Shown: positions 13,912 through 57,900 of the stretch, in pieces
How the letters are laid out: the number at the start of each line of letters is the position of its first letter
How positions within the stretch are numbered: position 1 is the first letter of the stretch
From: an uncultured Bacilli bacterium
GTDB lineage: Bacteria > Bacillota_I > Bacilli_A > RF39 > UBA660
Length of the DNA stretch: 64,000 nucleotides
NCBI GenBank assembly: GCA_947626595.1
Contig: CANQST010000001.1
Span: 1,076 to 65,075, forward strand
Direction of reading: 5' to 3'
Notes under the pieces: generated by a model
Database searches by the model: none
The model's input: the letters and a program-made list of their open reading frames with translations, nothing else
Told to the model about the DNA's origin: nothing
Made by a program: the position numbers and the translations under genes

Positions 13912-14847
13912 ATGAGATATGCCCAAATACTAGAATGTAGTTCAACTTTAGGCAATTGTTGCAATGACTATGGATTAATTACTATTATTGATATAACTAG
14001 AAAAGTATTTGAATTAATTCAATTAATTGTACCGATACTACTTATGTTAATGATTACGGTACAGTTAGTTAAGATGGTTACTAATCCAGAAGATAAGAAA
14101 GATCCTAAAAAATTGGTTAATAAGATAATTGCGACTTTTGTATGTTTCTTTTTGCCAGTTATTGCGGATGTTGTAGTGGGACTTTTACCTAATAGTTTTA
14201 GTCTTTCTTCTTGTTGGAAAAATGCTAAGATTTCTAGAGAAATTTCAGCTAATAGTCCACTTGTTTATATTAAGGTAACAGATAGGGATCCTTATGCGAT
14301 AGTTACTGATGGTAGTGGGTATGATCCAGGTAATGAAAGACAACCAGGTTCGAGTGGCTCTTCTTCACCAACTGGTTCTGGTGCTCAGCGGTTGATTAGT
14401 GTGGCAGCTGGAGAAATTGGCAACCATGAGAGTAATGGTAGTCACAGTAAGTATGAAAGTTATAATGGTTTGGACTCTTCGCAACCATGGTGTGCGGCTT
14501 TTGTTTCTTGGTGTGCTGGGCAAGCGGGTTTTTTACAGTCAGGTATAATGCCAAAATTTACTCTTTGTTCAGCAGGGGCTGCTTGGTTTCAAAATAAAGG
14601 ACAATTTCATACAGAGGGAAGTGGCTATACTCCACAACCAGGAGATATTGTCTTTTATGGTGCAGGTGGTTCACAACACACAGGAATTGTGGAAAAAGTT
14701 GACGAAAACAATATTTATACAATAGAAGGAAATACTAGTTGCGAGGGAGAAGCACAAAGCAAATGTGGTGGAAGTGATGGTGTCTCTAGAAAAACACGTA
14801 ATAGGCATACTGGTTATGTTTATGGTTATGGAACTCCGGCTTATTAG
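13912..14847 (+). CDS. membrane-associated CHAP-domain peptidoglycan hydrolase/amidase
   Basis: N-terminal Cys-rich segment plus TM helices. C-terminal CHAP domain (QPWCAAFVSWCAG …HTGIV). The 3' half is visibly more GC-rich than its surroundings. Confidence 0.65.
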   Translation: MRYAQILECSSTLGNCCNDYGLITIIDITRKVFELIQLIVPILLMLMITVQLVKMVTNPEDKKDPKKLVNKIIATFVCFFLPVIADVVVGLLPNSFSLSSCWKNAKISREISANSPLVYIKVTDRDPYAIVTDGSGYDPGNERQPGSSGSSSPTGSGAQRLISVAAGEIGNHESNGSHSKYESYNGLDSSQPWCAAFVSWCAGQAGFLQSGIMPKFTLCSAGAAWFQNKGQFHTEGSGYTPQPGDIVFYGAGGSQHTGIVEKVDENNIYTIEGNTSCEGEAQSKCGGSDGVSRKTRNRHTGYVYGYGTPAY

Positions 14848-17633: not shown

Positions 17634-18596
17634 TTATAGCGAAAATATATAAATATAGGCAATGGAGTTAGTAAAACAATAGAAATGATTATTATCTTTA
17701 TAATAAATAATATTTAAGTGGTTTTGTAAGGCAACATCTAGTAAATCTTTAAAGTTTTCTAGGAAGAAAGTTTGATAATTATTAAGATTAGGAATATTTT
17801 TAACATAGACGATTAATTCTTTATAATCTTTAAGAAAATTATTAAGTCTTTTTAAAGTATTTTTCTTTTGTTTATTATATATCTTAATTAGAGTAGTAGT
17901 ACTTATAATAAGGAGAATACTACCAAGAGAAAGAAGAATAAAGGAAATATTTTTAGATGTAGAAATAGTTCTTTTATAAGTTTTTTTAGTAGATTTAGTT
18001 TTTGTAACTTCTACTATTTTGTCTTTTAGGGGAATTATAAATTCTATTTCATCTTTTATTTTTTTATTAAGAGAATTAATTTTGTATGTTATAGAAAGTT
18101 CTAATTTTACATAGGCATTAGTAGATATATTATATGTATCTTCATAACTTTTTACTAGATTTTTATAGTAGTCATAGTCAATGCAGATATTTTTATTTAT
18201 TAAGTATTTCTTCTTAGTTATAGTTTTATTATTTTTATTAACAAAATTTTTCTTTTTCCAGATTTCTTTTTCTGTACCATTTTGATTAGTAAAGGTAGTA
18301 ATAAGTTCTTCTTTATAAATAGTAGTGTAAGAAATTTTTTCTTTGATATCATTATTTAATTGATAGAGAAAATTAATATTAAATGATTTGATGGCATTAC
18401 TTGGGAAAATACCTTTAGTAGTATTTTGATAAAAAGGGTTAGGTTTCAAATTAATAGTATAATTACTAATTTTATTTATTTCTATTTTATGGACTTTGAT
18501 ATTTTTATTAGATATAAAGATACTTAATGAAATAAGAAATATAGATATTAAAAGTAGAAAAATAGAAATATATTTTCGCATATTTTTCTTAAACAT
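17634..18596 (-). CDS. bitopic membrane protein (N-terminal TM, Asn/Lys-rich extracellular domain, second TM), last gene of the sipW operon
   Basis: 320 aa. Starts 5 bp after the sipW-like gene. Confidence 0.45.
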   Translation of the reverse strand: MFKKNMRKYISIFLLLISIFLISLSIFISNKNIKVHKIEINKISNYTINLKPNPFYQNTTKGIFPSNAIKSFNINFLYQLNNDIKEKISYTTIYKEELITTFTNQNGTEKEIWKKKNFVNKNNKTITKKKYLINKNICIDYDYYKNLVKSYEDTYNISTNAYVKLELSITYKINSLNKKIKDEIEFIIPLKDKIVEVTKTKSTKKTYKRTISTSKNISFILLSLGSILLIISTTTLIKIYNKQKKNTLKRLNNFLKDYKELIVYVKNIPNLNNYQTFFLENFKDLLDVALQNHLNIIYYKDNNHFYCFTNSIAYIYIFSL

Positions 18597-18600
18597 ATAA

Positions 18601-19683
18601 TCACCTTTTTAAAATTTCATGGAACCAAATAGATGGGTAACCTAGATATTTAAAACGAATTAGATATGTACCTTTAATTTGATTAACTTTTACTTTTTTG
18701 TAATCAGCGGTTTTATTATTATCACCTTTTGTTTGATATAAATTATTATTAATTTTTTTAATAATACGATGCGCAATTAACTGTTTATCTAATTCATAAA
18801 CAATAATAGTGTTTTCTTTAAGAGTTTCTTTTTCTTCTTTAGATAGTTTTTTTAAGATAATAATATCTCCTCTTTGATATGTTGGATACATACTATTAGA
18901 AAGGACTGCGACGGGGAAATATTTTAAAAAACCTAACATAAAACTTGAAAAAATAGTCGCAAAACCTAGTACAAATGCATATGGTAAAAGTGTAGAAGAT
19001 TTTTTCTTATCTATAAAGTAACTTTCTTCTTTTAATAAATAATATTTAATAGTAATGTATATTAATAATGATTTTATAATACTAATAGAGCCAGATATAA
19101 ACCAATTTATTTTAGGAAGAATAGGGAAAAGTAAGGGTGCAAATCTTTCTAAAATTAAGAAAATAATAGAAGTATAGTAACTGGTTTTATAACTTAGAAA
19201 TGTAGCGGTAATATGGGTTATAATAAGGGGAATAATTGTCTCTATAAAGTATTTAAATATAACTTCTTTATTACTTAGAGTAGGAAATGAACAATAGGGA
19301 AATGTAATAATAATTAGAAAAATGGTAATAAAAACGGGATTATTTCTTTTAAAAAGTAAAATACTTCGTAAATATTCTATGGAAAGAATAGGTATTCCTA
19401 CTAGAAAGATACTTTTTATAATATTAAGAAAGTTATATTTATATGGTGATGGTTTAAAACCACTTAGAAAACCAATACTAAAATATATAAGATAAGTAAA
19501 AATTTCTAATACAAAAATGATAATAAAATATTTTTTATTTTTGGGATAAGTAATGAGATGTTCTTTTTGATAATGAAGGGAAAATGAGAGTATAGATAGT
19601 CCTAAAAATATTTGGATAATATGATAAATATAGAGTTTTTTAAAGAAAAGTAGGATTAAAAATATTATTTTATTCTTGGACAT
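18601..19683 (-). CDS. SipW-type (archaeal/ER-type) signal peptidase I fused to an N-terminal ~230-aa polytopic membrane domain
   Basis: C-terminal S26B module with catalytic Ser in VLSNSMYPTYQRGD and His in LIAHRII. N-terminal ~7 predicted TM helices. 14-bp overlap with the upstream TasA-like gene. Confidence 0.65.
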   Translation of the reverse strand: MSKNKIIFLILLFFKKLYIYHIIQIFLGLSILSFSLHYQKEHLITYPKNKKYFIIIFVLEIFTYLIYFSIGFLSGFKPSPYKYNFLNIIKSIFLVGIPILSIEYLRSILLFKRNNPVFITIFLIIITFPYCSFPTLSNKEVIFKYFIETIIPLIITHITATFLSYKTSYYTSIIFLILERFAPLLFPILPKINWFISGSISIIKSLLIYITIKYYLLKEESYFIDKKKSSTLLPYAFVLGFATIFSSFMLGFLKYFPVAVLSNSMYPTYQRGDIIILKKLSKEEKETLKENTIIVYELDKQLIAHRIIKKINNNLYQTKGDNNKTADYKKVKVNQIKGTYLIRFKYLGYPSIWFHEILKR

Positions 19684-20170
19684 ATTCGATTATTCCTGTT
19701 ATAGTTTTAGTTTTACTATCATTTGGTTCTAAGTTTATATCTTTATCATAAGTAACTGTAATATTAAAAGATGTTTTATCGCCTGATTTTAAAATATTAC
19801 TAAGGGCAGTTGTTTCATAGGAAATAGCTTTAGAGCCATTAATTTCATCAGTTTGAAATAAGACATTTTTTAGTTTGGCATTTATTGTTCCTAGATTTTC
19901 AATGGTAACACGATAGGTAATAGTATCACCAGGATTTATTAATTTAGCATTAAAAGTAACTGTGGTATTGGTAAAATTAGGGTTTCCTGGATTTGTACCA
20001 TTAGTGGCATTTATTACTTCAACATTAGTAATACGAACATCCCAAGAGCTTATGATTTCAGCATTTCCTTTGAAATGAAACTCTGTTGCGAAAGAGGCAT
20101 ATCCAACGGCCATAATTAAAAGTAAGAGTAGGATAATACCTATTATTATATTTCTTTTTATTTGACGCAT
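19670..20170 (-). CDS. TasA/camelysin-like secreted protein with SipW-cognate signal peptide
   Basis: MRQIKRNIIIGIILLLLLIMAVGYASFATEF resembles the SipW-cognate signal class (…GGTYAYFSDTE). N/T-rich beta-rich body. RBS aaaggag 8 nt upstream of the ATG at 20170 (the ORF-track start at 20188 lies inside the RBS). Confidence 0.55.
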   Translation of the reverse strand: MRQIKRNIIIGIILLLLLIMAVGYASFATEFHFKGNAEIISSWDVRITNVEVINATNGTNPGNPNFTNTTVTFNAKLINPGDTITYRVTIENLGTINAKLKNVLFQTDEINGSKAISYETTALSNILKSGDKTSFNITVTYDKDINLEPNDSKTKTITGIIEYVQE

Positions 20171-20295
20171 AATTTCAACTCCTTTCATAAATTAAACTAT
20201 GAAAGGTTATTTAAAAATAGCAGTCCTCTTTAGTATTATATGTATTAATTTATTTTGTGATATAATTATATTAATAAAGAGAGGTAGTATTTTAA

Positions 20296-52343: not shown

Positions 52344-53540
52344 ATGAAACGTATACTTATGAATAAAAATGTAGAAGTTTTGGTTGTTGAATATGATACG
52401 GCAACAGGAGTTTTTAATAGTATATATGAAGTTAAAAATATTGATTATGCACCATATATTTTAAAAAGTTTTTATAAAGAAAATGATATTAATGACACTT
52501 TCTTTAGAAGTAGTTTGAGTGAATGGTTTAAAGATAGAGGTATTCCTTCATGGCGTGATAAGTTAGATTTATTATTACATAGATTAAATATAACAGCGCC
52601 TTATGAACTTTTAGATAAGGCATTTGGATTATCTTTATCAGATCAGTATTGGCTAAAGCCTTTTGATAGTGATATTAAATATAATGATATTAACTTTTTT
52701 GATAATGACTTTGATTACGCTGAATTTATGGAGGCTTCATTATCAACTAATAGTAAAATAATAACTAAAGAGGCATCTTTGAAAACACCTAATAATACTA
52801 CAGATGGAATGCTTCAAAAAGCTTGGATTATTGATAATGGGGTAAGATACTTATTAAAGGGTGGATACAAAAATGAAACTTTACAACCATTTAATGAAGT
52901 ATTAGCTAGTGAGATATGTGAAAGATTAGGATTTAATCATGTAAAATATACAATAGATACATATAAAGATAAAGTTGTTTCTAAGTGTCCATGTTTTATA
53001 ACAAAAGATACGGAGTTAGTTACATGCTACCAAATAAAAAATGATATGAACAGGCATGATAGTGTAGAAGATTATAATGAATATATTAGGAAATTAGAAG
53101 ATAATGGAATAGAAAGTGCTAGAGAAAAAGTAGAAAATATGTATATTCTAGATTTCCTTATCATGAATGAAGATAGGCATTTAAACAATTTTGGAATTAT
53201 AAGGGATGTTAATACTTTAAAATGGTTAGATGTTGCGCCTATATTTGATAATGGACAAAGTTTAAATATTGAGTATTATGACGAAGAGGAATTACATATT
53301 TCTGGAGAAGGAAGATTGTTTTATGAGATAAAGCCTTTTGACGAAATAATAAAGGTAGTTAAGAATTTAAAAAGAATTGATATAGAAGAATTAGATGGTA
53401 TAGTAGAGTGGTTTGATAATTTATTACATAAATATCAGCATTTAACTCATTATTCTGATATGAGAATTAATAGATTATGTACTTTACTTAATAGACAGAT
53501 TAACAAGTTAAAGGAATTAATAGAAAAAGAAAACACTTAA
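52344..53540 (+). CDS. HipA-like Ser/Thr kinase domain protein (orphan, no HipB partner)
   Basis: ILDFLIMNEDRHLNNFGII matches the HipA catalytic loop (…GNxDxHxKNfS…). APIFDNG matches HipA (L)APAYD. Confidence 0.6.
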   Translation: MKRILMNKNVEVLVVEYDTATGVFNSIYEVKNIDYAPYILKSFYKENDINDTFFRSSLSEWFKDRGIPSWRDKLDLLLHRLNITAPYELLDKAFGLSLSDQYWLKPFDSDIKYNDINFFDNDFDYAEFMEASLSTNSKIITKEASLKTPNNTTDGMLQKAWIIDNGVRYLLKGGYKNETLQPFNEVLASEICERLGFNHVKYTIDTYKDKVVSKCPCFITKDTELVTCYQIKNDMNRHDSVEDYNEYIRKLEDNGIESAREKVENMYILDFLIMNEDRHLNNFGIIRDVNTLKWLDVAPIFDNGQSLNIEYYDEEELHISGEGRLFYEIKPFDEIIKVVKNLKRIDIEELDGIVEWFDNLLHKYQHLTHYSDMRINRLCTLLNRQINKLKELIEKENT

Positions 53541-53623
53541 TCATGGCAAATGGTTAAGTGTTTTAACAAAGAAATTTATCATAAAATATTGAATTGTTAT
53601 AGTACAATCACTTAGTGATGACT

Positions 53624-53707
53624 ATGAGTAAAAAAGATTTTTTAATACTTTCTCAAGTACTAATAATAATTTTATTTATAGTACTATTATTATTAAACAC
53701 TATATAA
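53624..53707 (+). CDS. 27-aa hydrophobic peptide, type I toxin-like (copy 1)
   Basis: MSKKDFLILSQVLIIILFIVLLLLNTI has a charged head plus a single TM. Followed by hairpin terminators. Weak SD. Confidence 0.4.
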   Translation: MSKKDFLILSQVLIIILFIVLLLLNTI

Positions 53708-53917: not shown

Positions 53918-53945
53918 GTAAATGGAAGATATTTGTGAGAGTGCG

Positions 53946-53963
53946 ACCTCCTAAAAAGGAGGT
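53946..53963 (+). promoter_or_regulatory. 5'-UTR hairpin sequestering the Shine-Dalgarno (acctcc-taaaaa-ggaggt)
   Basis: A perfect 6-bp stem whose 3' arm is the SD aggagg 8 nt upstream of the ATG at 53971. This is a hallmark of type I toxin mRNAs. Confidence 0.5.
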
Positions 53964-53970
53964 GGTTACT

Positions 53971-54054
53971 ATGAGTAAAAAAGATTTTTTAATACTTTTT
54001 CAAGTACTAATAATAATTTTACTTATAGTACTATTACTATTAGACGCTATATAA
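53971..54054 (+). CDS. 27-aa hydrophobic peptide, type I toxin-like (copy 2)
   Basis: MSKKDFLILFQVLIIILLIVLLLLDAI. Strong SD aaggaggtgg. Followed by a perfect 11-bp-stem hairpin and a second terminator. Confidence 0.45.
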   Translation: MSKKDFLILFQVLIIILLIVLLLLDAI

Positions 54055-54524: not shown

Positions 54525-55892
54525 TTGTATAATAGAACTATAAGTGGTGGAAGTTCAGATAATGTACAGGGTTCAATAGACGAATTATATAAAATGAGTG
54601 GAGTAAGTACTACTCAATATAAGGAAGAAATTTTAAACGGAGCAGACCCAGTATTGGGTGAAGGAATGATACCAGTAACTTTAGATGGTGATGGGACAGT
54701 AAAGTACGCTAATTTAAATACACCTTGGTATAAATATGAAGAAAAGAAATGGGCAAATGCAGTAATACTTAAGAGTAATCCAAGTAAAAGTTATAAAACA
54801 GGGGATATAATCTCAGAAAACGATATTGAGAGTTATTTTGTGTGGGTTCCAAGATTTAAATACAAAATATGGAACTTAACAAGTGAAGATGGGTATCAAG
54901 ATACATTTACTAATACTGCTAATGATGCTAATTCTATAAGACAACTTACTGGAAAAGCAAGATTAATAGACATAATATTTGAAGATAAAGATGCACAACC
55001 ATCAACTACAATAGCATTAAATTTATATTATACCCATCCAGCGTTTACTGCTTTTAGAGTAAATGGTTTATGGATAGCTAAATTTGAAGCTAGTGGTACA
55101 ACAAGTGCCATAACAGTAAAACCAAATATGACTTCTTTAAGAAGTACCACAGTTGGTTCTTTTTGGCATGCATTTTATGATTATAAAAATACTAGTGGAA
55201 ATCATAATACTAATTTAGATCCACACATGATAAAGAACACTGAATGGGGAGCAGTCGCCTATCTTTCTCATTCAGTATATGGAATAGGTAAAGAAGTAAA
55301 TGTAAATAATAATTTAAGTTTTAAAACAGGTTATTCGGCGGCATCAAATACTGACCAAAGTTCATATTCTGGAACTACCGGAACTAAAGAAATTACTGAT
55401 GATGATGGACCAGCAGTAACACAACCATATAATACATCAACTGGCTATCTTGCTTCAACAACAGGAAATATCACAGGAATATATGATATGAGTGGTGGTG
55501 CTTGGGAATTTGTAGCAGGTTATCTTGACCCTTATGGACTTAGTAATAATAGTGGGGTAGCAAGTGGCTTAACGGCTACTGATTTAGCTAAAGCACAGTA
55601 CTTTGACCAATATTCTGGTGCTTTAACATGGTCTTCTTACAGTAAGAGAATTGTTGGAGACGCCACTGGAGAGTTAGGTCCTTTCTACTATTATAAAGAT
55701 AAAGATAATTCTAGTCGCACTCATAATGGATGGTATGCTGACAGCTCTAATTTTATTGAACCTATCAATACTTGGTTTGTTAGAGGTGGTTATTGTGCTG
55801 ATGGAGTACTAGCTGGTCAGTTTAATTTTGATAGGTATACTGGAGGCATGAATGTCAATCGTGGTTCTAGGTTTGTTCTTGCAGTAAAGTAA
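54525..55892 (+). CDS. secreted FGE-sulfatase/SUMF1-domain protein (paralog A), currently separated from its start and signal peptide by a frameshift
   Basis: FGE-domain motifs: HPAFTAFRVNGLWIAKFEAS, MIKNTEWGAVAYL (≈LPTEAEWEYAA), GIYDMSGGAWEFV (≈GLYDMAGNVWEW), VRGGYC (≈RGGSW), NRGSRFVLA (≈GFR). The TTG at 54525 is only the first in-frame start codon in the ORF track. Confidence 0.65.
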   Translation: MYNRTISGGSSDNVQGSIDELYKMSGVSTTQYKEEILNGADPVLGEGMIPVTLDGDGTVKYANLNTPWYKYEEKKWANAVILKSNPSKSYKTGDIISENDIESYFVWVPRFKYKIWNLTSEDGYQDTFTNTANDANSIRQLTGKARLIDIIFEDKDAQPSTTIALNLYYTHPAFTAFRVNGLWIAKFEASGTTSAITVKPNMTSLRSTTVGSFWHAFYDYKNTSGNHNTNLDPHMIKNTEWGAVAYLSHSVYGIGKEVNVNNNLSFKTGYSAASNTDQSSYSGTTGTKEITDDDGPAVTQPYNTSTGYLASTTGNITGIYDMSGGAWEFVAGYLDPYGLSNNSGVASGLTATDLAKAQYFDQYSGALTWSSYSKRIVGDATGELGPFYYYKDKDNSSRTHNGWYADSSNFIEPINTWFVRGGYCADGVLAGQFNFDRYTGGMNVNRGSRFVLAVK

Positions 55893-55917
55893 AAGGAAAA
55901 AGGATGTGATTTATATT

Positions 55918-57900
55918 ATGAATAATAGAAAACAAAAATATATAATAATTGGAGCTTTATGTTTAGTTGTAACTCTACTGTCTATAGGTTATGCTGTATT
56001 GTCTGCTACCTTAAGAATTAATGGAACAGCAAAAGTATCAGGTGAAAAATGGAGTGTTGAGTTTGTAGAAAAGCAAGCGAGGACAATACCAAAAGGTAAA
56101 GCTGCTTGTGATATTGGTACTATCGCTAATACTTCAGTAACAAACCTATTAGCTAAAGTAAAGGTACCAGGAGATAGTTGTACATTTACTATACCAGTAG
56201 AAAATACTGGAACATTGGATGCAAGTTTAGTTGATGTTACTAATAAAGCTTTGTCTTTGTCATATGATGGAAATCAAGAGGATATTGATATCATAAGTAG
56301 TTATATAACTTATGATGTTAGATATGGTAACACACAAGTAAATAATGAAACTAATTTTGATAGCATTGATATCTTAGAGCCAGGTGAAAGAGAAACTATA
56401 ACTTTAAAAGTAGAATTTAAAGAAGAAGCAACACAAATACCAAATGCAGTTGTAACAGTAACAGGATTAGATAGAACTTTTAATTTTGAAAATAAGGTTG
56501 GTTCAAGTACTACTAGTCCAACACCTAACACAACTCCAGTGTTCAATGATACAAGTGGAGCTAATCAACCTGTGCTTAGTGACAATATGATACCTGTAGT
56601 ATATGACGAAACAAGAAAAGAATGGGTAAAACAAAATTTAGATAAAAGTTATGATTATTCACAACAAGTATGGGCTAATGCTGTAACTGTAGTTGAAGAT
56701 GGAACCCAAACAAGAAGTTATTATAAGAAAGCCAAAGCTGGAACTGTTATATCAATGGAAGATATAAACACAATGTGGGTATGGATACCAAGATATAGTT
56801 ATACTATTAAGAGTGAAGATGGGGAGAACTATTATGGTAAAGCAAGTTCAGATAATCAAAGTCCAACACAAGAATTACCTGGAGAAATAGATGTTAAGTT
56901 TATACCCATAAGTGAAAATGATAGTGATGGTAGTGCTCAATACACAGAAGAAGAACCAACTGGATGGTTTACCCCACCAGGGTTTAAATTTGGAGATAAA
57001 GATTTATCAGGGGTTTGGGTAGGAAAGTTTGAGACAGGTTCAATTGATGGAACAGATCATGGAGATGTAGAAACAGATAACTTAGTGGCAATTAAGCCTA
57101 ATATAACATCTTGGAGAAATATTAGAGTATCAACCTTAGAATTAGTTTCCATGGGATTAACTAAAACTGGAAATGTTTATGGTTTTGATAATACCTATGA
57201 TAGTCATGCAATTAAGAATACCGAATGGGCACTTATGGTATACTTAACTCAAAGTAAATATGGTAAATATGGAAATGCATTATATACAGGATCTAGTAAA
57301 GAAGTTTACATTAACAATTACAATAAGTATGTTACTGGCTGTTCGGGTGGAGCCGGTGCTGCAGATATTTCTTCAGAATGTTCTTATCATTATGATAATT
57401 TAACGACAAAAGGACAAGGGACTGGATATGCTGGAGCTGGTGCTTCAACAACTGGAAATGTTTATGGAATATATGATACTAATGGTGGCGCTTGGGAGTA
57501 TGTAATGGGAAGTTATTCAGCTGGAGGACAAAAATATTCTGGAACAGCAGTGTCAAACAATTCTGGATATGTAGGTAAAATTAATAGTGGAACTGCCGAT
57601 TTTAGTGAAAATGCTAGAGAATGGCAAGCTGATAAATATTATGACTTTTATACCAGCGGAGATACATTAACAGCATGTAATGGTAACCCATGTAAAGGTC
57701 ATGCTTTAAATGAGTTTTCACAATGGTATAATGATGGAATGTTTTTTATATTGAGTTCTTACCCATGGCTATATAGAGGTCATGATTATGGCTATAATGC
57801 AACAAGTGGAATTTTTGGATTTTCACGTAGTGGTGGTCATGCGTATGGTGGTGCAAGAGGAAATGATAGTTTCCGTATAGTCCTAACCCCTAACAATTAA
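55918..57900 (+). CDS. secreted protein with SipW-cognate signal, TasA/camelysin-like N-domain and C-terminal FGE-sulfatase/SUMF1 domain (paralog B)
   Basis: MNNRKQKYIIIGALCLVVTLLSIGYAVLSATL signal. Residues ~30-210 parallel the 172-aa TasA-like protein (PGDSCTFTIPVENTGTLDASL vs PGDTITYRVTIENLGTINAKL). The C-terminal half is collinear with paralog A (IKNTEWALMVYL, GIYDTNGGAWEYV, GFSRSGG…SFRIVLTP). Confidence 0.75.
   Translation: MNNRKQKYIIIGALCLVVTLLSIGYAVLSATLRINGTAKVSGEKWSVEFVEKQARTIPKGKAACDIGTIANTSVTNLLAKVKVPGDSCTFTIPVENTGTLDASLVDVTNKALSLSYDGNQEDIDIISSYITYDVRYGNTQVNNETNFDSIDILEPGERETITLKVEFKEEATQIPNAVVTVTGLDRTFNFENKVGSSTTSPTPNTTPVFNDTSGANQPVLSDNMIPVVYDETRKEWVKQNLDKSYDYSQQVWANAVTVVEDGTQTRSYYKKAKAGTVISMEDINTMWVWIPRYSYTIKSEDGENYYGKASSDNQSPTQELPGEIDVKFIPISENDSDGSAQYTEEEPTGWFTPPGFKFGDKDLSGVWVGKFETGSIDGTDHGDVETDNLVAIKPNITSWRNIRVSTLELVSMGLTKTGNVYGFDNTYDSHAIKNTEWALMVYLTQSKYGKYGNALYTGSSKEVYINNYNKYVTGCSGGAGAADISSECSYHYDNLTTKGQGTGYAGAGASTTGNVYGIYDTNGGAWEYVMGSYSAGGQKYSGTAVSNNSGYVGKINSGTADFSENAREWQADKYYDFYTSGDTLTACNGNPCKGHALNEFSQWYNDGMFFILSSYPWLYRGHDYGYNATSGIFGFSRSGGHAYGGARGNDSFRIVLTPNN

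Follow-up and report, generated by a model that had tools for sequence, protein, structure and literature searches.

Three adjacent genes on the minus strand of an uncultured low-GC gut bacterium, 2.5 kb in all, encode a small secreted protein (p1), a signal peptidase fused to a large membrane domain (p2) and a bitopic membrane protein (p3). What do they build, and why does the peptidase carry an extra domain? The initial annotation had read these genes as a sipW-tasA-like operon. TasA-superfamily fibres form the protein scaffold of Bacillus and several archaeal biofilms, and a related module, the abpX locus of archaea and Bacillota, combines a 10-TM SPase I with a DUF5305 accessory protein (bioRxiv 10.64898/2026.01.04.697558). 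We analysed the stretch of 64,000 nucleotides that contains the operon (the window) together with related loci from other genomes.

Layout of the operon and its relatives

The features discussed below are as follows.

17634-18596, minus strand: p3, DUF5305 bitopic membrane protein, 320 aa
18601-19683, minus strand: p2, full ORF, 360 aa
18601..18924, minus strand: p2 catalytic domain, ER/archaeal-type (S26B) signal peptidase I (TIGR02228)
18769-18771 and 18892-18894, minus strand: p2 catalytic residues His305 and Ser264, respectively, accompanied by GDNN with Asp321, and by Asp327
18925..18990, minus strand: p2 ninth TM helix, residues 232-253, the peptidase's anchor (hydropathy peak)
19006..19683, minus strand: p2 N-terminal domain, residues 1-226, predicted 8-helix degenerate CAAX-protease (CPBP/Abi) fold
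19366..19377, minus strand: invariant Glu103-x-x-Arg106 in helix 4 of the p2 N-terminal domain, near its cytoplasmic end (family alignment)
19670-20188, minus strand: p1, ORF as listed, 172 aa
19670..20170, minus strand: p1, putative AbpX-like (TasA-superfamily) secreted subunit, 166 aa from an ATG with RBS at 20170
20051..20095, minus strand: p1 predicted N-terminal donor strand, residues 26-40, SFATEFHFKGNAEII, with an alternating hydrophobic pattern
20096..20170, minus strand: p1 predicted signal peptide, residues 1-25, MRQIKRN-IIIGIILLLLLIMAV-GYA, with one hydrophobic segment (residues 8-26)
20155..20235, minus strand: p1 leader hairpin, in which CCUUUCAUA pairs with UAUGAAAGG and would sequester the Shine-Dalgarno sequence (inverted repeat 20181-20206)
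55906..57900, plus strand: 664-aa paralogue with p1-like signal, donor strand and beta-sandwich, unlinked to the operon

The ORF listing confirms the coordinates of the three minus-strand ORFs and the 14-nt overlap of p1 and p2 (19670-19683) given in the initial annotation; the gap between p2 and p3 is 4 nt. The motifs quoted there are also present, IMAVGYASFATEF in p1 and both SNSMYPT (Ser264) and IAHRII (His305) in p2, and its description of a compact three-part operon, made up of a small secreted beta-sandwich protein, an S26B peptidase-polytopic fusion and a bitopic membrane protein, holds.

A genome scan with a 13-sequence alignment retrieved 80 related loci, from gut MAGs of rabbit, human and deer. 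The order p1-p2-p3 is kept in ~75 of 83 loci, from different species, and p3 adjoins p2 in 76 of the 83. Some loci are multi-paralogue, with 3-4 copies of p1, and p1-related ORFs of ~295 aa also occur. Among the neighbouring ORFs that we checked, none adjoining the operon is an SLH or LPXTG anchor, sortase or c-di-GMP gene. The genes that flank the operon, on the opposite strand, are spoIIIAH, gerM and gerE-like.

The fused signal peptidase and its DUF5305 neighbour

Judged from its sequence, the C-terminal module of p2 is an ER/archaeal-type signal peptidase I, with a Ser nucleophile and a His base. It scores 76.9 bits against TIGR02228 (cutoff 51.85; residues 228-351), and its best PDB sequence matches are human SEC11C (1.3e-6) and then SEC11A, with the p2 motifs aligned to SGSMEP, HRVIK and TKGDNN of SEC11C. 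Across 234 full-length relatives, S264, H305 and R306 are 100% conserved and D321 and D327 99%. The anchor helix, which is preceded by a Lys-rich cytoplasmic loop, aligns with the N-terminal TM region of SEC11C. The module had been annotated as an S26B peptidase of the SipW type: the S26B assignment stands, but the SipW assignment does not, as the score against the SipW equivalog NF046067 is 61 bits, below the cutoff of 190.

The fusion of this peptidase to a large polytopic domain is genuine and conserved. p2 is a single unbroken ORF with no internal start ahead of the anchor helix, and among 234 non-identical relatives the fused protein has a median length of 381 aa (range 333-414). Because these relatives share the fused length, p2 is not an assembly artefact, and together with the lack of an internal start they also rule out a split gene. 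A stand-alone gene for the N-terminal domain was rejected as well: a profile of this domain yielded 1,586 clusters at 50% identity, in which the short matches are scattered over 151-311 aa, show no discrete length and fit contig-end fragments. The fusion, which had been flagged as unusual, is so relative to SipW, but it is the norm in the p2 family and was already noted for abpX loci (bioRxiv 10.64898/2026.01.04.697558).

AlphaFold2 (AF2) confidently models the N-terminal domain with eight helices, rather than the ~7 TM helices initially counted ahead of the peptidase; with the anchor helix, p2 has ~9 TM helices. The modeled domain has the eight helices of the CPBP fold, and its best structural match is SpdC. 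At the sequence level, none of 37 p2 members matches PF02517 at E<=0.1, and a search of PDB sequences with the domain profile returned a spurious low-complexity match to NCX_Mj alone. CPBP motif 1 is EExxxR, with a spacing of +4 from the catalytic Glu to the Arg (PMC12260438); p2 has a single Glu at a spacing of +3, and of the 234 full-length relatives 100% have E103 and 98% have R106. For motif 2 (FxxxH) and motif 3 (HxxxD/N), there is no conserved helix His in these relatives, and the top His column (56%), position 83, falls in a loop. Because Glu103 and Arg106 alone are conserved and the His residues are not, we consider the domain probably non-catalytic. Conservation of Glu103 at 100% nevertheless exceeds the obvious need of a purely structural scaffold, and counts against the view that the domain is one. 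An exosortase or archaeosortase was also considered for this domain and rejected: the only Cys of the window protein, C131, is unconserved (best Cys column 42%), and p1 lacks a C-terminal sorting signal. That this extra domain has a CAAX-protease fold appears not to have been described before.

p3 scores 56 bits against PF17231 (DUF5305; cutoff 29; residues 113-316), and a comparison with PDB sequences gave nothing meaningful. Two hydropathy peaks place TM1 at residues 10-28 and TM2 at 219-237, leaving ~29-218 extracytoplasmic and a cytoplasmic tail at 238-320, in agreement with the earlier description of p3 as bitopic, to which a family can now be added. That family also includes TafG and the "SPase I accessory" protein of AbpX loci, and the architecture of p3 fits the published description of DUF5305 (bioRxiv 10.64898/2026.01.04.697558).

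The putative secreted subunit and an unlinked paralogue

The 172 aa first given for p1 correspond to the ORF listed from 20188, but the likelier start is the ATG at 20170, with AAAGGAG 8 nt before it, which agrees with one gene call and gives 166 aa. The leader RNA around this start folds at -18.6 kcal/mol (z -3.7). The pairing CUUUCAUA...UAUGAAAGGAG recurs in three other loci (L005, L009 and L067); in most other loci the Shine-Dalgarno sequence is mostly unpaired. The hairpin may have a function at p1.

The end of the signal is well conserved among 129 family members (M20 99%, G23 81%, Y24 98%) and aligns in position with ...GLTYA|QWSE of AbpX; cleavage is predicted after G-Y-A. Its proposed SipW-cognate character survives as a motif likeness by eye (VGY[AS]xFAT vs GGTWAAFND), but the TIGR04088 model matches neither p1 nor any of 32 family members. 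The segment that follows has the family consensus [AS]FATQLxINGTAEI, with F (73%) or L (26%) at mature position 2 and an alternation of L31, I33, G35, A37 and I39, in which L31 is conserved in 81%, G35 in 99% and I39 in 93% of the family; W43 is found in 100%. The register of this predicted donor strand is that of W2/L6/L8 in AbpX, a protein that polymerises via donor-strand complementation and in which an acidic residue at mature position 4 is tied to Ca2+-mediated strand donation (bioRxiv 10.64898/2026.01.04.697558). The acidic residue expected from AbpX is absent from the p1 family, where position 4 is T (68%), S (14%) or Q (14%); the window p1 carries Thr, followed by Glu at position 5. 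The mature window protein has a pI of 4.99 and 11% D/E, compared with family medians of 4.38 and 12.5%.

The AF2 model of p1 (pLDDT 88) consists of an N-terminal helix and a 7-strand beta-sandwich with a free N-terminal segment, and structure searches return generic beta-sandwiches. The best PDB sequence match of the p1 family alignment (A4) is AbpX (9sj2_C, E 0.069), and another AbpX entry ranks fourth (E 0.84). With the P. abyssi AbpX sequence (bioRxiv 10.64898/2026.01.04.697558), hhalign gives 93.4% and E 2.5e-7 over 123 columns that take in the signal end, the donor strand and the sandwich. The window p1 has no match at E<=1 to the Peptidase_M73 (PF12389), TasA (NF046066) or TapA models, and its family-model matches are sub-threshold ones to DUF11, CARDB and DUF7507; within the family, 14 of 32 members have sub-threshold Peptidase_M73 matches (best E 5.9e-4) and 2 of 32 match TasA, at 5e-4. 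The label TasA/camelysin-like thus gives way, as no M73 or TasA model is reached and AbpX is found by hhalign instead. Because the AbpX alignment reaches 93%, whereas that with TasA covers a 30-column PGD..N.G motif alone, we would place p1, with modest support, in the AbpX clade of the TasA superfamily rather than with TasA/camelysin. Taken alone, the HMM evidence for the AbpX assignment is weak (E 0.069).

The 664-aa paralogue encoded elsewhere in the window has a p1-like module in its first ~200 aa, followed by a Ser/Thr/Pro linker and a C-terminal domain of ~450 aa. It matches the A4 HMM with E 9.9e-27 and p1 itself by BLASTP (4e-11, 29% identity over 102 aa, including ...SIGYAVLSATLRINGTA); in Pfam it has a weak DUF11 match only. 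We place it in the same system because its N-terminal module is common to p1, as a candidate second substrate or tip/adhesin subunit.

Proposed assembly route and comparison with known systems

We think it probable, with room for doubt, that the three genes make up a minimal abpX-type locus, one that specifies an extracellular fibre module of the TasA superfamily. p1 would be exported by its N-terminal signal-anchor, and p2, through its extracytoplasmic site Ser264/His305, would cut it behind M-A-V-G-Y-[AS], a motif that is nearly invariant. The freed N-terminus, [AS]-F-A-T-Q/E-L/F-x-I/F-N/K-G-..., would form an amphipathic strand that enters the beta-sandwich of the next subunit, giving a fibre by donor-strand complementation. 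The N-terminal domain of p2 would serve as a degenerate CAAX-protease-fold scaffold, in cis with the peptidase's anchor helix, most likely docking the substrate's signal-anchor or gating access to the peptidase without cutting. p3 would be a non-catalytic partner of the peptidase, and the 664-aa paralogue may be processed by p2 and added as a tip or adhesin subunit. A more specific proposal, which we offer tentatively and hold to be less likely true than false, is that the N-terminal domain, the SEC11-like module and the DUF5305 protein constitute a dedicated prokaryotic "signal peptidase complex", whose polytopic scaffold captures the signal-anchor of fibre subunits by the invariant Glu/Arg pair at the cytoplasmic face of the membrane and in this way couples cleavage to donor-strand assembly.

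Other readings compete with this picture. The N-terminal domain of p2 could be an active glutamate-dependent intramembrane protease, making p2 a two-protease enzyme: the signal peptide would be taken off at the S26B site, and the CPBP site would break down the freed peptide or cut the substrate a second time. We find this unlikely: motifs 2 and 3 are without a conserved His or Asn/Asp (the 56% His column being in a loop), no member matches the Pfam CPBP model, and both SpdC, which matches best by structure, and the known signal peptidase partner, SpbR, are non-catalytic. In addition, positive-inside topology puts the Glu/Arg pair where its helix meets the cytoplasm, across the membrane from the peptidase site. 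About as unlikely, and if anything a shade less so, is that p1 stays a monomer, an Ig-like protein of the DUF11/CARDB type that is secreted or surface-bound, needs a dedicated signal peptidase and forms no fibre. The sub-threshold DUF11/CARDB/DUF7507 matches of the window p1, the generic beta-sandwiches found by structure and the missing calcium-linked acidic residue would all suit such a protein. However, the AbpX alignment extends beyond the sandwich to the donor-strand region, the segment after the cleavage site is conserved like the fold core (G35 99%, I39 93%, W43 100%), the multi-paralogue loci (3-4 p1 copies) and the p1-related ORFs of ~295 aa are reminiscent of sets of major and minor pilins, and every characterised system with a peptidase-plus-DUF5305 context makes filaments.

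The reading closest to the original one, a canonical tapA-sipW-tasA homologue with p1 as TasA/camelysin orthologue, p2 as SipW orthologue and p3 as TapA-like anchor, is very improbable. The resemblance of the p1 signal to the SipW-cognate type, the PGD..N.G motif common to the p1 family and TasA, and the weak M73/TasA matches of some family members speak for it. It is contradicted by the family thresholds (TasA/M73 and the SipW equivalog, 61 against 190): the window p1 has no M73, TasA, TapA or TIGR04088 match, p3 belongs to DUF5305 and not to TapA, and both the gene order and the fused domain are unlike those of the Bacillus operon.

If the more specific proposal of a dedicated signal peptidase complex is right, p2 would be a hard-wired, in-cis counterpart of the SpbR-SpsB regulatory pair, and many uncultured small-genome gut Bacillota would build TasA-superfamily fibres with a calcium-independent variant of the AbpX donor strand. 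The locus itself points to a divergent AbpX-type version that is common among uncultured gut Bacillota of low GC. The degenerate CAAX-protease fold, with the SpbR precedent, provides a testable idea for how the 10-TM signal peptidases of these systems work. With just three genes in 2.5 kb, the module is also a handy reconstitution system.

Among known systems, the SpbR-SpsB and SpdC-SagB pairs resemble p2 in having a polytopic CPBP-fold partner, with motifs 2 and 3 degenerate, of an extracytoplasmic enzyme. p2 differs from SpbR-SpsB in joining both parts in one polypeptide and in having an ER-type (Ser/His) peptidase, SpsB being of the bacterial P-type (Ser/Lys). The S. aureus type I signal peptidase SpsB is bound in trans, and regulated, by SpbR, a protein resembling a degenerate CAAX protease; SpbR and SpdC are non-catalytic, with degenerate motifs 2 and 3, and contact a single-pass enzyme by its TM helix and ectodomain, controlling its activity (PMC12260438). 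Haloarchaeal Tafi, or Tat-dependent bundling pili (TafA/E, TafD, TafG), likewise have a dedicated S26 peptidase and a DUF5305 protein: pilin processing requires TafD, as shown by deletion and complementation, and TafG accompanies it (PMC11821415; PMC12337348). Unlike p2, TafD combines four TM helices with an extracellular domain at its C-terminus and lacks an N-terminal 8-helix domain, and unlike p1 the Tafi substrates take the Tat pathway and the pilins belong to another clade. The eukaryotic signal peptidase complex (SEC11A/C, SPCS1-3) contains the nearest solved relatives of the p2 catalytic module, SEC11C/A, and likewise works with non-catalytic membrane partners, to which DUF5305 has been likened (bioRxiv 10.64898/2026.01.04.697558); for the partners the analogy is one of function only. 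The B. subtilis tapA-sipW-tasA operon also encodes a dedicated ER-type (Ser/His) signal peptidase with its fibre subunit, and TasA shares with p1 a signal end of the G-x-[YW]-A-x-F style, a donor strand after it and the PGD..N.G motif; the differences are that p1 fails TasA/M73, p2 fails the SipW equivalog and DUF5305 takes the place of TapA. SipW is ~190 aa long, without the 8-helix domain.

The closest likeness is to the AbpX loci of Pyrodictium abyssi and its archaeal and Bacillota/Chloroflexota homologues, where the subunit is likewise a small, acidic beta-sandwich protein whose Sec signal is followed by an amphipathic donor strand, aromatic at mature position 2, and where a TIGR02228 signal peptidase of ~380 aa and ~10 TM lies alongside, with a DUF5305 accessory gene. 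In P. abyssi itself, the gene after abpX encodes a 380-aa SPase I, which gives 98.9% over 321 columns against the p2 family. The motifs G[FL]xxGF, ExxR and P[IL][IL]P are colinear in the two (32 residues, then 84 vs 88), the P. abyssi enzyme having EMVR at the ExxR position, 32 residues past G[FL]xxGF. Because a comparison of the N-terminal domain by itself with this enzyme is weak (hhalign probability 0.8%, HMM 9 bits), homology of that domain across both systems rests on motif colinearity and equal architecture. p1 differs from AbpX in its low identity (~23%), in Thr rather than an acidic residue at mature position 4, and in being less acidic (pI ~4.0 and ~15% D/E for AbpX); the hosts, uncultured low-GC gut bacteria, also set these loci apart from those described, as does the absence of adjoining SLH/LPXTG anchor, sortase and c-di-GMP genes. 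Because modules of this type were first described in early 2026 (bioRxiv 10.64898/2026.01.04.697558), the operon is not novel in kind and is most likely a divergent addition to them.

Organization of the operon

The operon consists of three consecutive minus-strand ORFs, located exactly where the initial annotation had placed them:

19670-20188, minus strand: p1, the candidate fibre subunit, ORF of 172 aa
18601-19683, minus strand: p2, a signal peptidase fused to a membrane N-domain, ORF of 360 aa
17634-18596, minus strand: p3, a DUF5305 protein, ORF of 320 aa
20155-20235, minus strand: predicted p1 leader hairpin, in which CCUUUCAUA pairs with UAUGAAAGG, sequestering the Shine-Dalgarno sequence in the fold

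In the ORF listing p1 shares 14 nt with p2, and a 4-nt gap separates p2 from p3. Judging from a preceding AAAGGAG-N8, translation of p1 more likely begins at the ATG at 20170 (166 aa), a start also used by one public gene call. RNA folding gave the leader hairpin -18.6 kcal/mol (z -3.7). This pairing recurs 5' of p1 in three other species (L005, L009 and L067) and is not general: in only 24 of 80 relatives are at least 3 of 4 Shine-Dalgarno bases paired.

A divergently transcribed SIR2-family gene flanks the operon on one side and a tRNA-Arg gene on the other. G+C is ~26% across the window, and GC skew is strongly and near-uniformly positive over positions 1-64000 (cumulative skew rising from 0 to 9.1), which suggests that the entire window is the leading strand of one replichore. 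At 13912-14847 (plus strand), a 311-aa protein has a T4SS-pilin-like membrane region at its N-terminus together with a CHAP peptidoglycan-hydrolase domain (precomputed Pfam, identical locus L001); its neighbours are sporulation-type genes (SpoIIIAH-like, GerM/Germane and GerE-like).

Scanning one genome per species yielded 415 p2 relatives. The best 80 of these 415 loci all come from uncultured gut MAGs (rabbit, human and deer) labelled Bacilli, Clostridia, Tenericutes/Mycoplasmatota or Acholeplasmataceae, one of them a closed 1.26-Mb genome. The order p1-p2-p3 is kept in ~75 of 83 loci.

The p1 family and its paralogues

The initial annotation described p1 as TasA/camelysin-like with a SipW-cognate signal. 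The motifs it cited are all present in the p1 and p2 sequences, but neither label was supported: models for TasA/camelysin, TapA and the SipW-cognate signal did not match the window p1, whose only family matches (DUF11, CARDB and DUF7507) were all sub-threshold. In the wider family, weak matches to Peptidase_M73 occur in 14 of 32 members and to TasA in 2 of 32; against B. subtilis TasA, a 30-column PGD..N.G[ST][IL] motif alone aligns. For the family alignment A4 (45 clusters), the best PDB sequence match is AbpX, the archaeal fibril protein of P. abyssi (9sj2_C, E 0.069; also 9rhp_A, E 0.84), and hhalign aligned the two with 93.4% probability over 123 columns spanning the signal peptide end, the following strand and the sandwich.

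The AF2 model of p1 (pLDDT 88) shows a seven-strand sandwich after an N-terminal helix. Across 129 family members the end of the signal, M-[AS]-V-G-Y-[SA], is near-invariant, and the post-signal segment [AS]-F-A-T-Q-L-x-I-N-G-T-A-E-I...W is kept as strongly as the core. A cut after G-Y-[AS], a predicted site for which the AbpX signal junction (...LTYA/QWSETLSLS) serves as the model, would leave a strand at the new N-terminus, its position 2 occupied by Phe and positions 6 and 8 by hydrophobic residues. Mature position 4 is Thr in p1, whereas in AbpX it is acidic, a feature tied there to calcium binding (bioRxiv 10.64898/2026.01.04.697558).

Related loci hold additional p1-type ORFs, reminiscent of how other donor-strand systems combine major and minor subunits. 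Three or four p1 paralogues are present in some loci; L062, L065, L075, L078 and L079 have four, with three preceding p2 and the fourth following p3. In eight loci (L009, L016, L027, L033, L036, L042, L053 and L076), a p1-related ORF of ~295 aa lies 5' of p2, in six of the eight between p1 and p2. This ORF, absent from the window, has its signal/donor-strand region in common with p1, making it a candidate minor or anchoring subunit. The window does contain a p1 paralogue 36 kb from the operon, beside a second, related ORF:

55906-57900, plus strand: 664-aa p1 paralogue (A4 HMM, E 9.9e-27)
54525-55892, plus strand: 455-aa ORF, by eye a paralogue of the C-terminal domain of the 664-aa protein

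The first ~200 residues of the 664-aa protein comprise a p1-type signal/donor-strand motif (...SIGYA/VLSATLRINGTA) and a PGD..ENTGT sandwich; a Ser/Thr/Pro linker then leads into a ~450-aa domain that matched no Pfam model. Such a layout makes the protein a candidate for a second p2 peptidase substrate or for a tip/adhesin subunit. The 455-aa ORF has neither a signal peptide nor a Pfam match; motifs seen by eye in both proteins include HMIKNTEWGAVAYL and GIYDMSGGAWEFV, the latter resembling an FGE-sulfatase/C-type-lectin-like signature, although no model matched at E<=0.01. Between the 455-aa ORF and a HipA-like kinase gene (52344-53540) lies a duplicated ~320-nt unit with near-identical small plus-strand ORFs at 53615-53707 and 53935-54054 (…MSKKDFLIL[SF]QVLIIIL[FL]IVLLLL…), each of which precedes a similar short ORF.

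A signal peptidase with a degenerate CAAX-protease-like domain

For the C-terminal module of p2, the initial assignment to S26B is right and that to SipW orthology is wrong: residues 228-351 score 76.9 bits against TIGR02228, the archaeal/ER-type signal peptidase I model (cutoff 51.85), but only 61 bits against the Bacillus SipW equivalog cutoff of 190, and among proteins of solved structure human SEC11C (E 1.3e-6) and SEC11A are nearest in sequence. Ser264, His305 and Arg306 are kept in 100%, and Asp321 and Asp327 in 99%, of 234 non-identical full-length relatives.

The fusion to a membrane domain is genuine (the ORF is uninterrupted, and 49 of 49 close clusters are 320-396 aa long), but it is the rule rather than unusual. 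A profile of the N-domain alone (residues 1-226) found 1,586 clusters at 50% identity, 1,224 of them at E<=1e-10; 121 of the best 150 are at least 330 aa, and the others have the scattered lengths typical of contig-end fragments. No Pfam model matched this region in any p2 family member. AF2, given 27 sequences, predicted eight helices (pLDDT 90.9, pTM 0.86) with a clear, degenerate CAAX-protease (CPBP) type fold, and the four structural matches listed below are all CPBP/Abi superfamily members.

Structural matches of the N-domain model (protein; chain; the two values for the match)
S. aureus SpdC/LyrA; 6u0o_A; 12.6; 201
CAAX protease Rce1; 4cad_C; 11.5; 199
APH-1; 8oqz_C; 7.5; 137
TMEM147; 6w6l_4; 6.5; 137

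The positive-inside rule puts the N-terminus in the cytoplasm together with the Lys-rich loops that follow helices 2, 4 and 8, and predicts that a ninth helix (residues 232-253) carries the catalytic domain to the outside. Active CPBP members carry EExxxR, FxxxH and HxxxD/N motifs (PMC12260438). Of these, the 234 relatives keep only a pair resembling the first motif, Glu103 (100%) and Arg106 (98%), in an I-E-x-x-R stretch close to where helix 4 ends; the pair should be cytoplasmic because the neighbouring Lys-rich loops are; Gly71, Gly75, Asn91, Pro187 and Pro190 are also kept.

Alongside the families, folds, residue conservation and synteny established here, we propose that p1 is exported and then cleaved after G-Y-[AS] by Ser264/His305 of p2, and that cleaved p1 would polymerise by donating its new N-terminal strand. 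The N-domain may have no catalytic role and act instead as a scaffold, docking the signal-anchor or gating the peptidase, a role modelled on the S. aureus pairs SpbR with SpsB and SpdC with SagB; SpbR, itself degenerate and CAAX-protease-like, binds SpsB, a signal peptidase, at both its TM helix and its ectodomain and regulates its activity (PMC12260438). p3 could be an additional peptidase partner.

A passive scaffold does not explain the absolute conservation of Glu103. The main rival reading attributes it to residual catalysis by the N-domain, which we consider improbable; no conserved His was found in any N-domain helix of the 234 full-length relatives. Speculatively, Glu103 could instead bind the substrate signal at its basic n-region (MRQIKRN; consensus MKNxKN).

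Relationship to AbpX loci

p3 belongs to DUF5305 (56 bits, cutoff 29) and has two TM segments, a ~190-aa extracytoplasmic domain and a ~80-aa cytoplasmic tail, an architecture matching both the "SPase I accessory" protein of abpX loci (bioRxiv 10.64898/2026.01.04.697558) and TafG of haloarchaeal Tafi loci (PMC11821415, PMC12337348). The gene after abpX in P. abyssi encodes a 380-aa S26 peptidase, which a profile alignment matched to the p2 family over 321 columns (98.9%). The N-domain alone scores poorly against this enzyme, the sequences being strongly diverged and different in composition; G[FL]xxGF, ExxR and P[IL][IL]P nevertheless occur in the same order, spaced by 32 and 84 residues in p2 and by 32 and 88 in the P. 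abyssi peptidase.

Ten TM helices are described for the SPase I encoded at bacterial and archaeal abpX loci, where a DUF5305 accessory protein is usually present too (bioRxiv 10.64898/2026.01.04.697558). Fibre loci of the AbpX type, with their polytopic SPase I and DUF5305 protein, are thus already known, in a 2026 preprint only and, for bacteria, bioinformatically only. The window locus adds a new and divergent representative, originating in uncultured gut bacteria, with a minimal operon of three genes that no anchor or regulator gene adjoins and a p1 missing the calcium-linked acidic donor-strand residue of AbpX. That preprint does not mention a CAAX/CPBP fold for the SPase I, and our literature search found no paper linking TasA, CPBP and signal peptidase. 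What appears to be new is the fold assigned to the N-domain and its parallel with SpbR-SpsB; with these, an "unusual architecture" becomes a hypothesis that can be tested.
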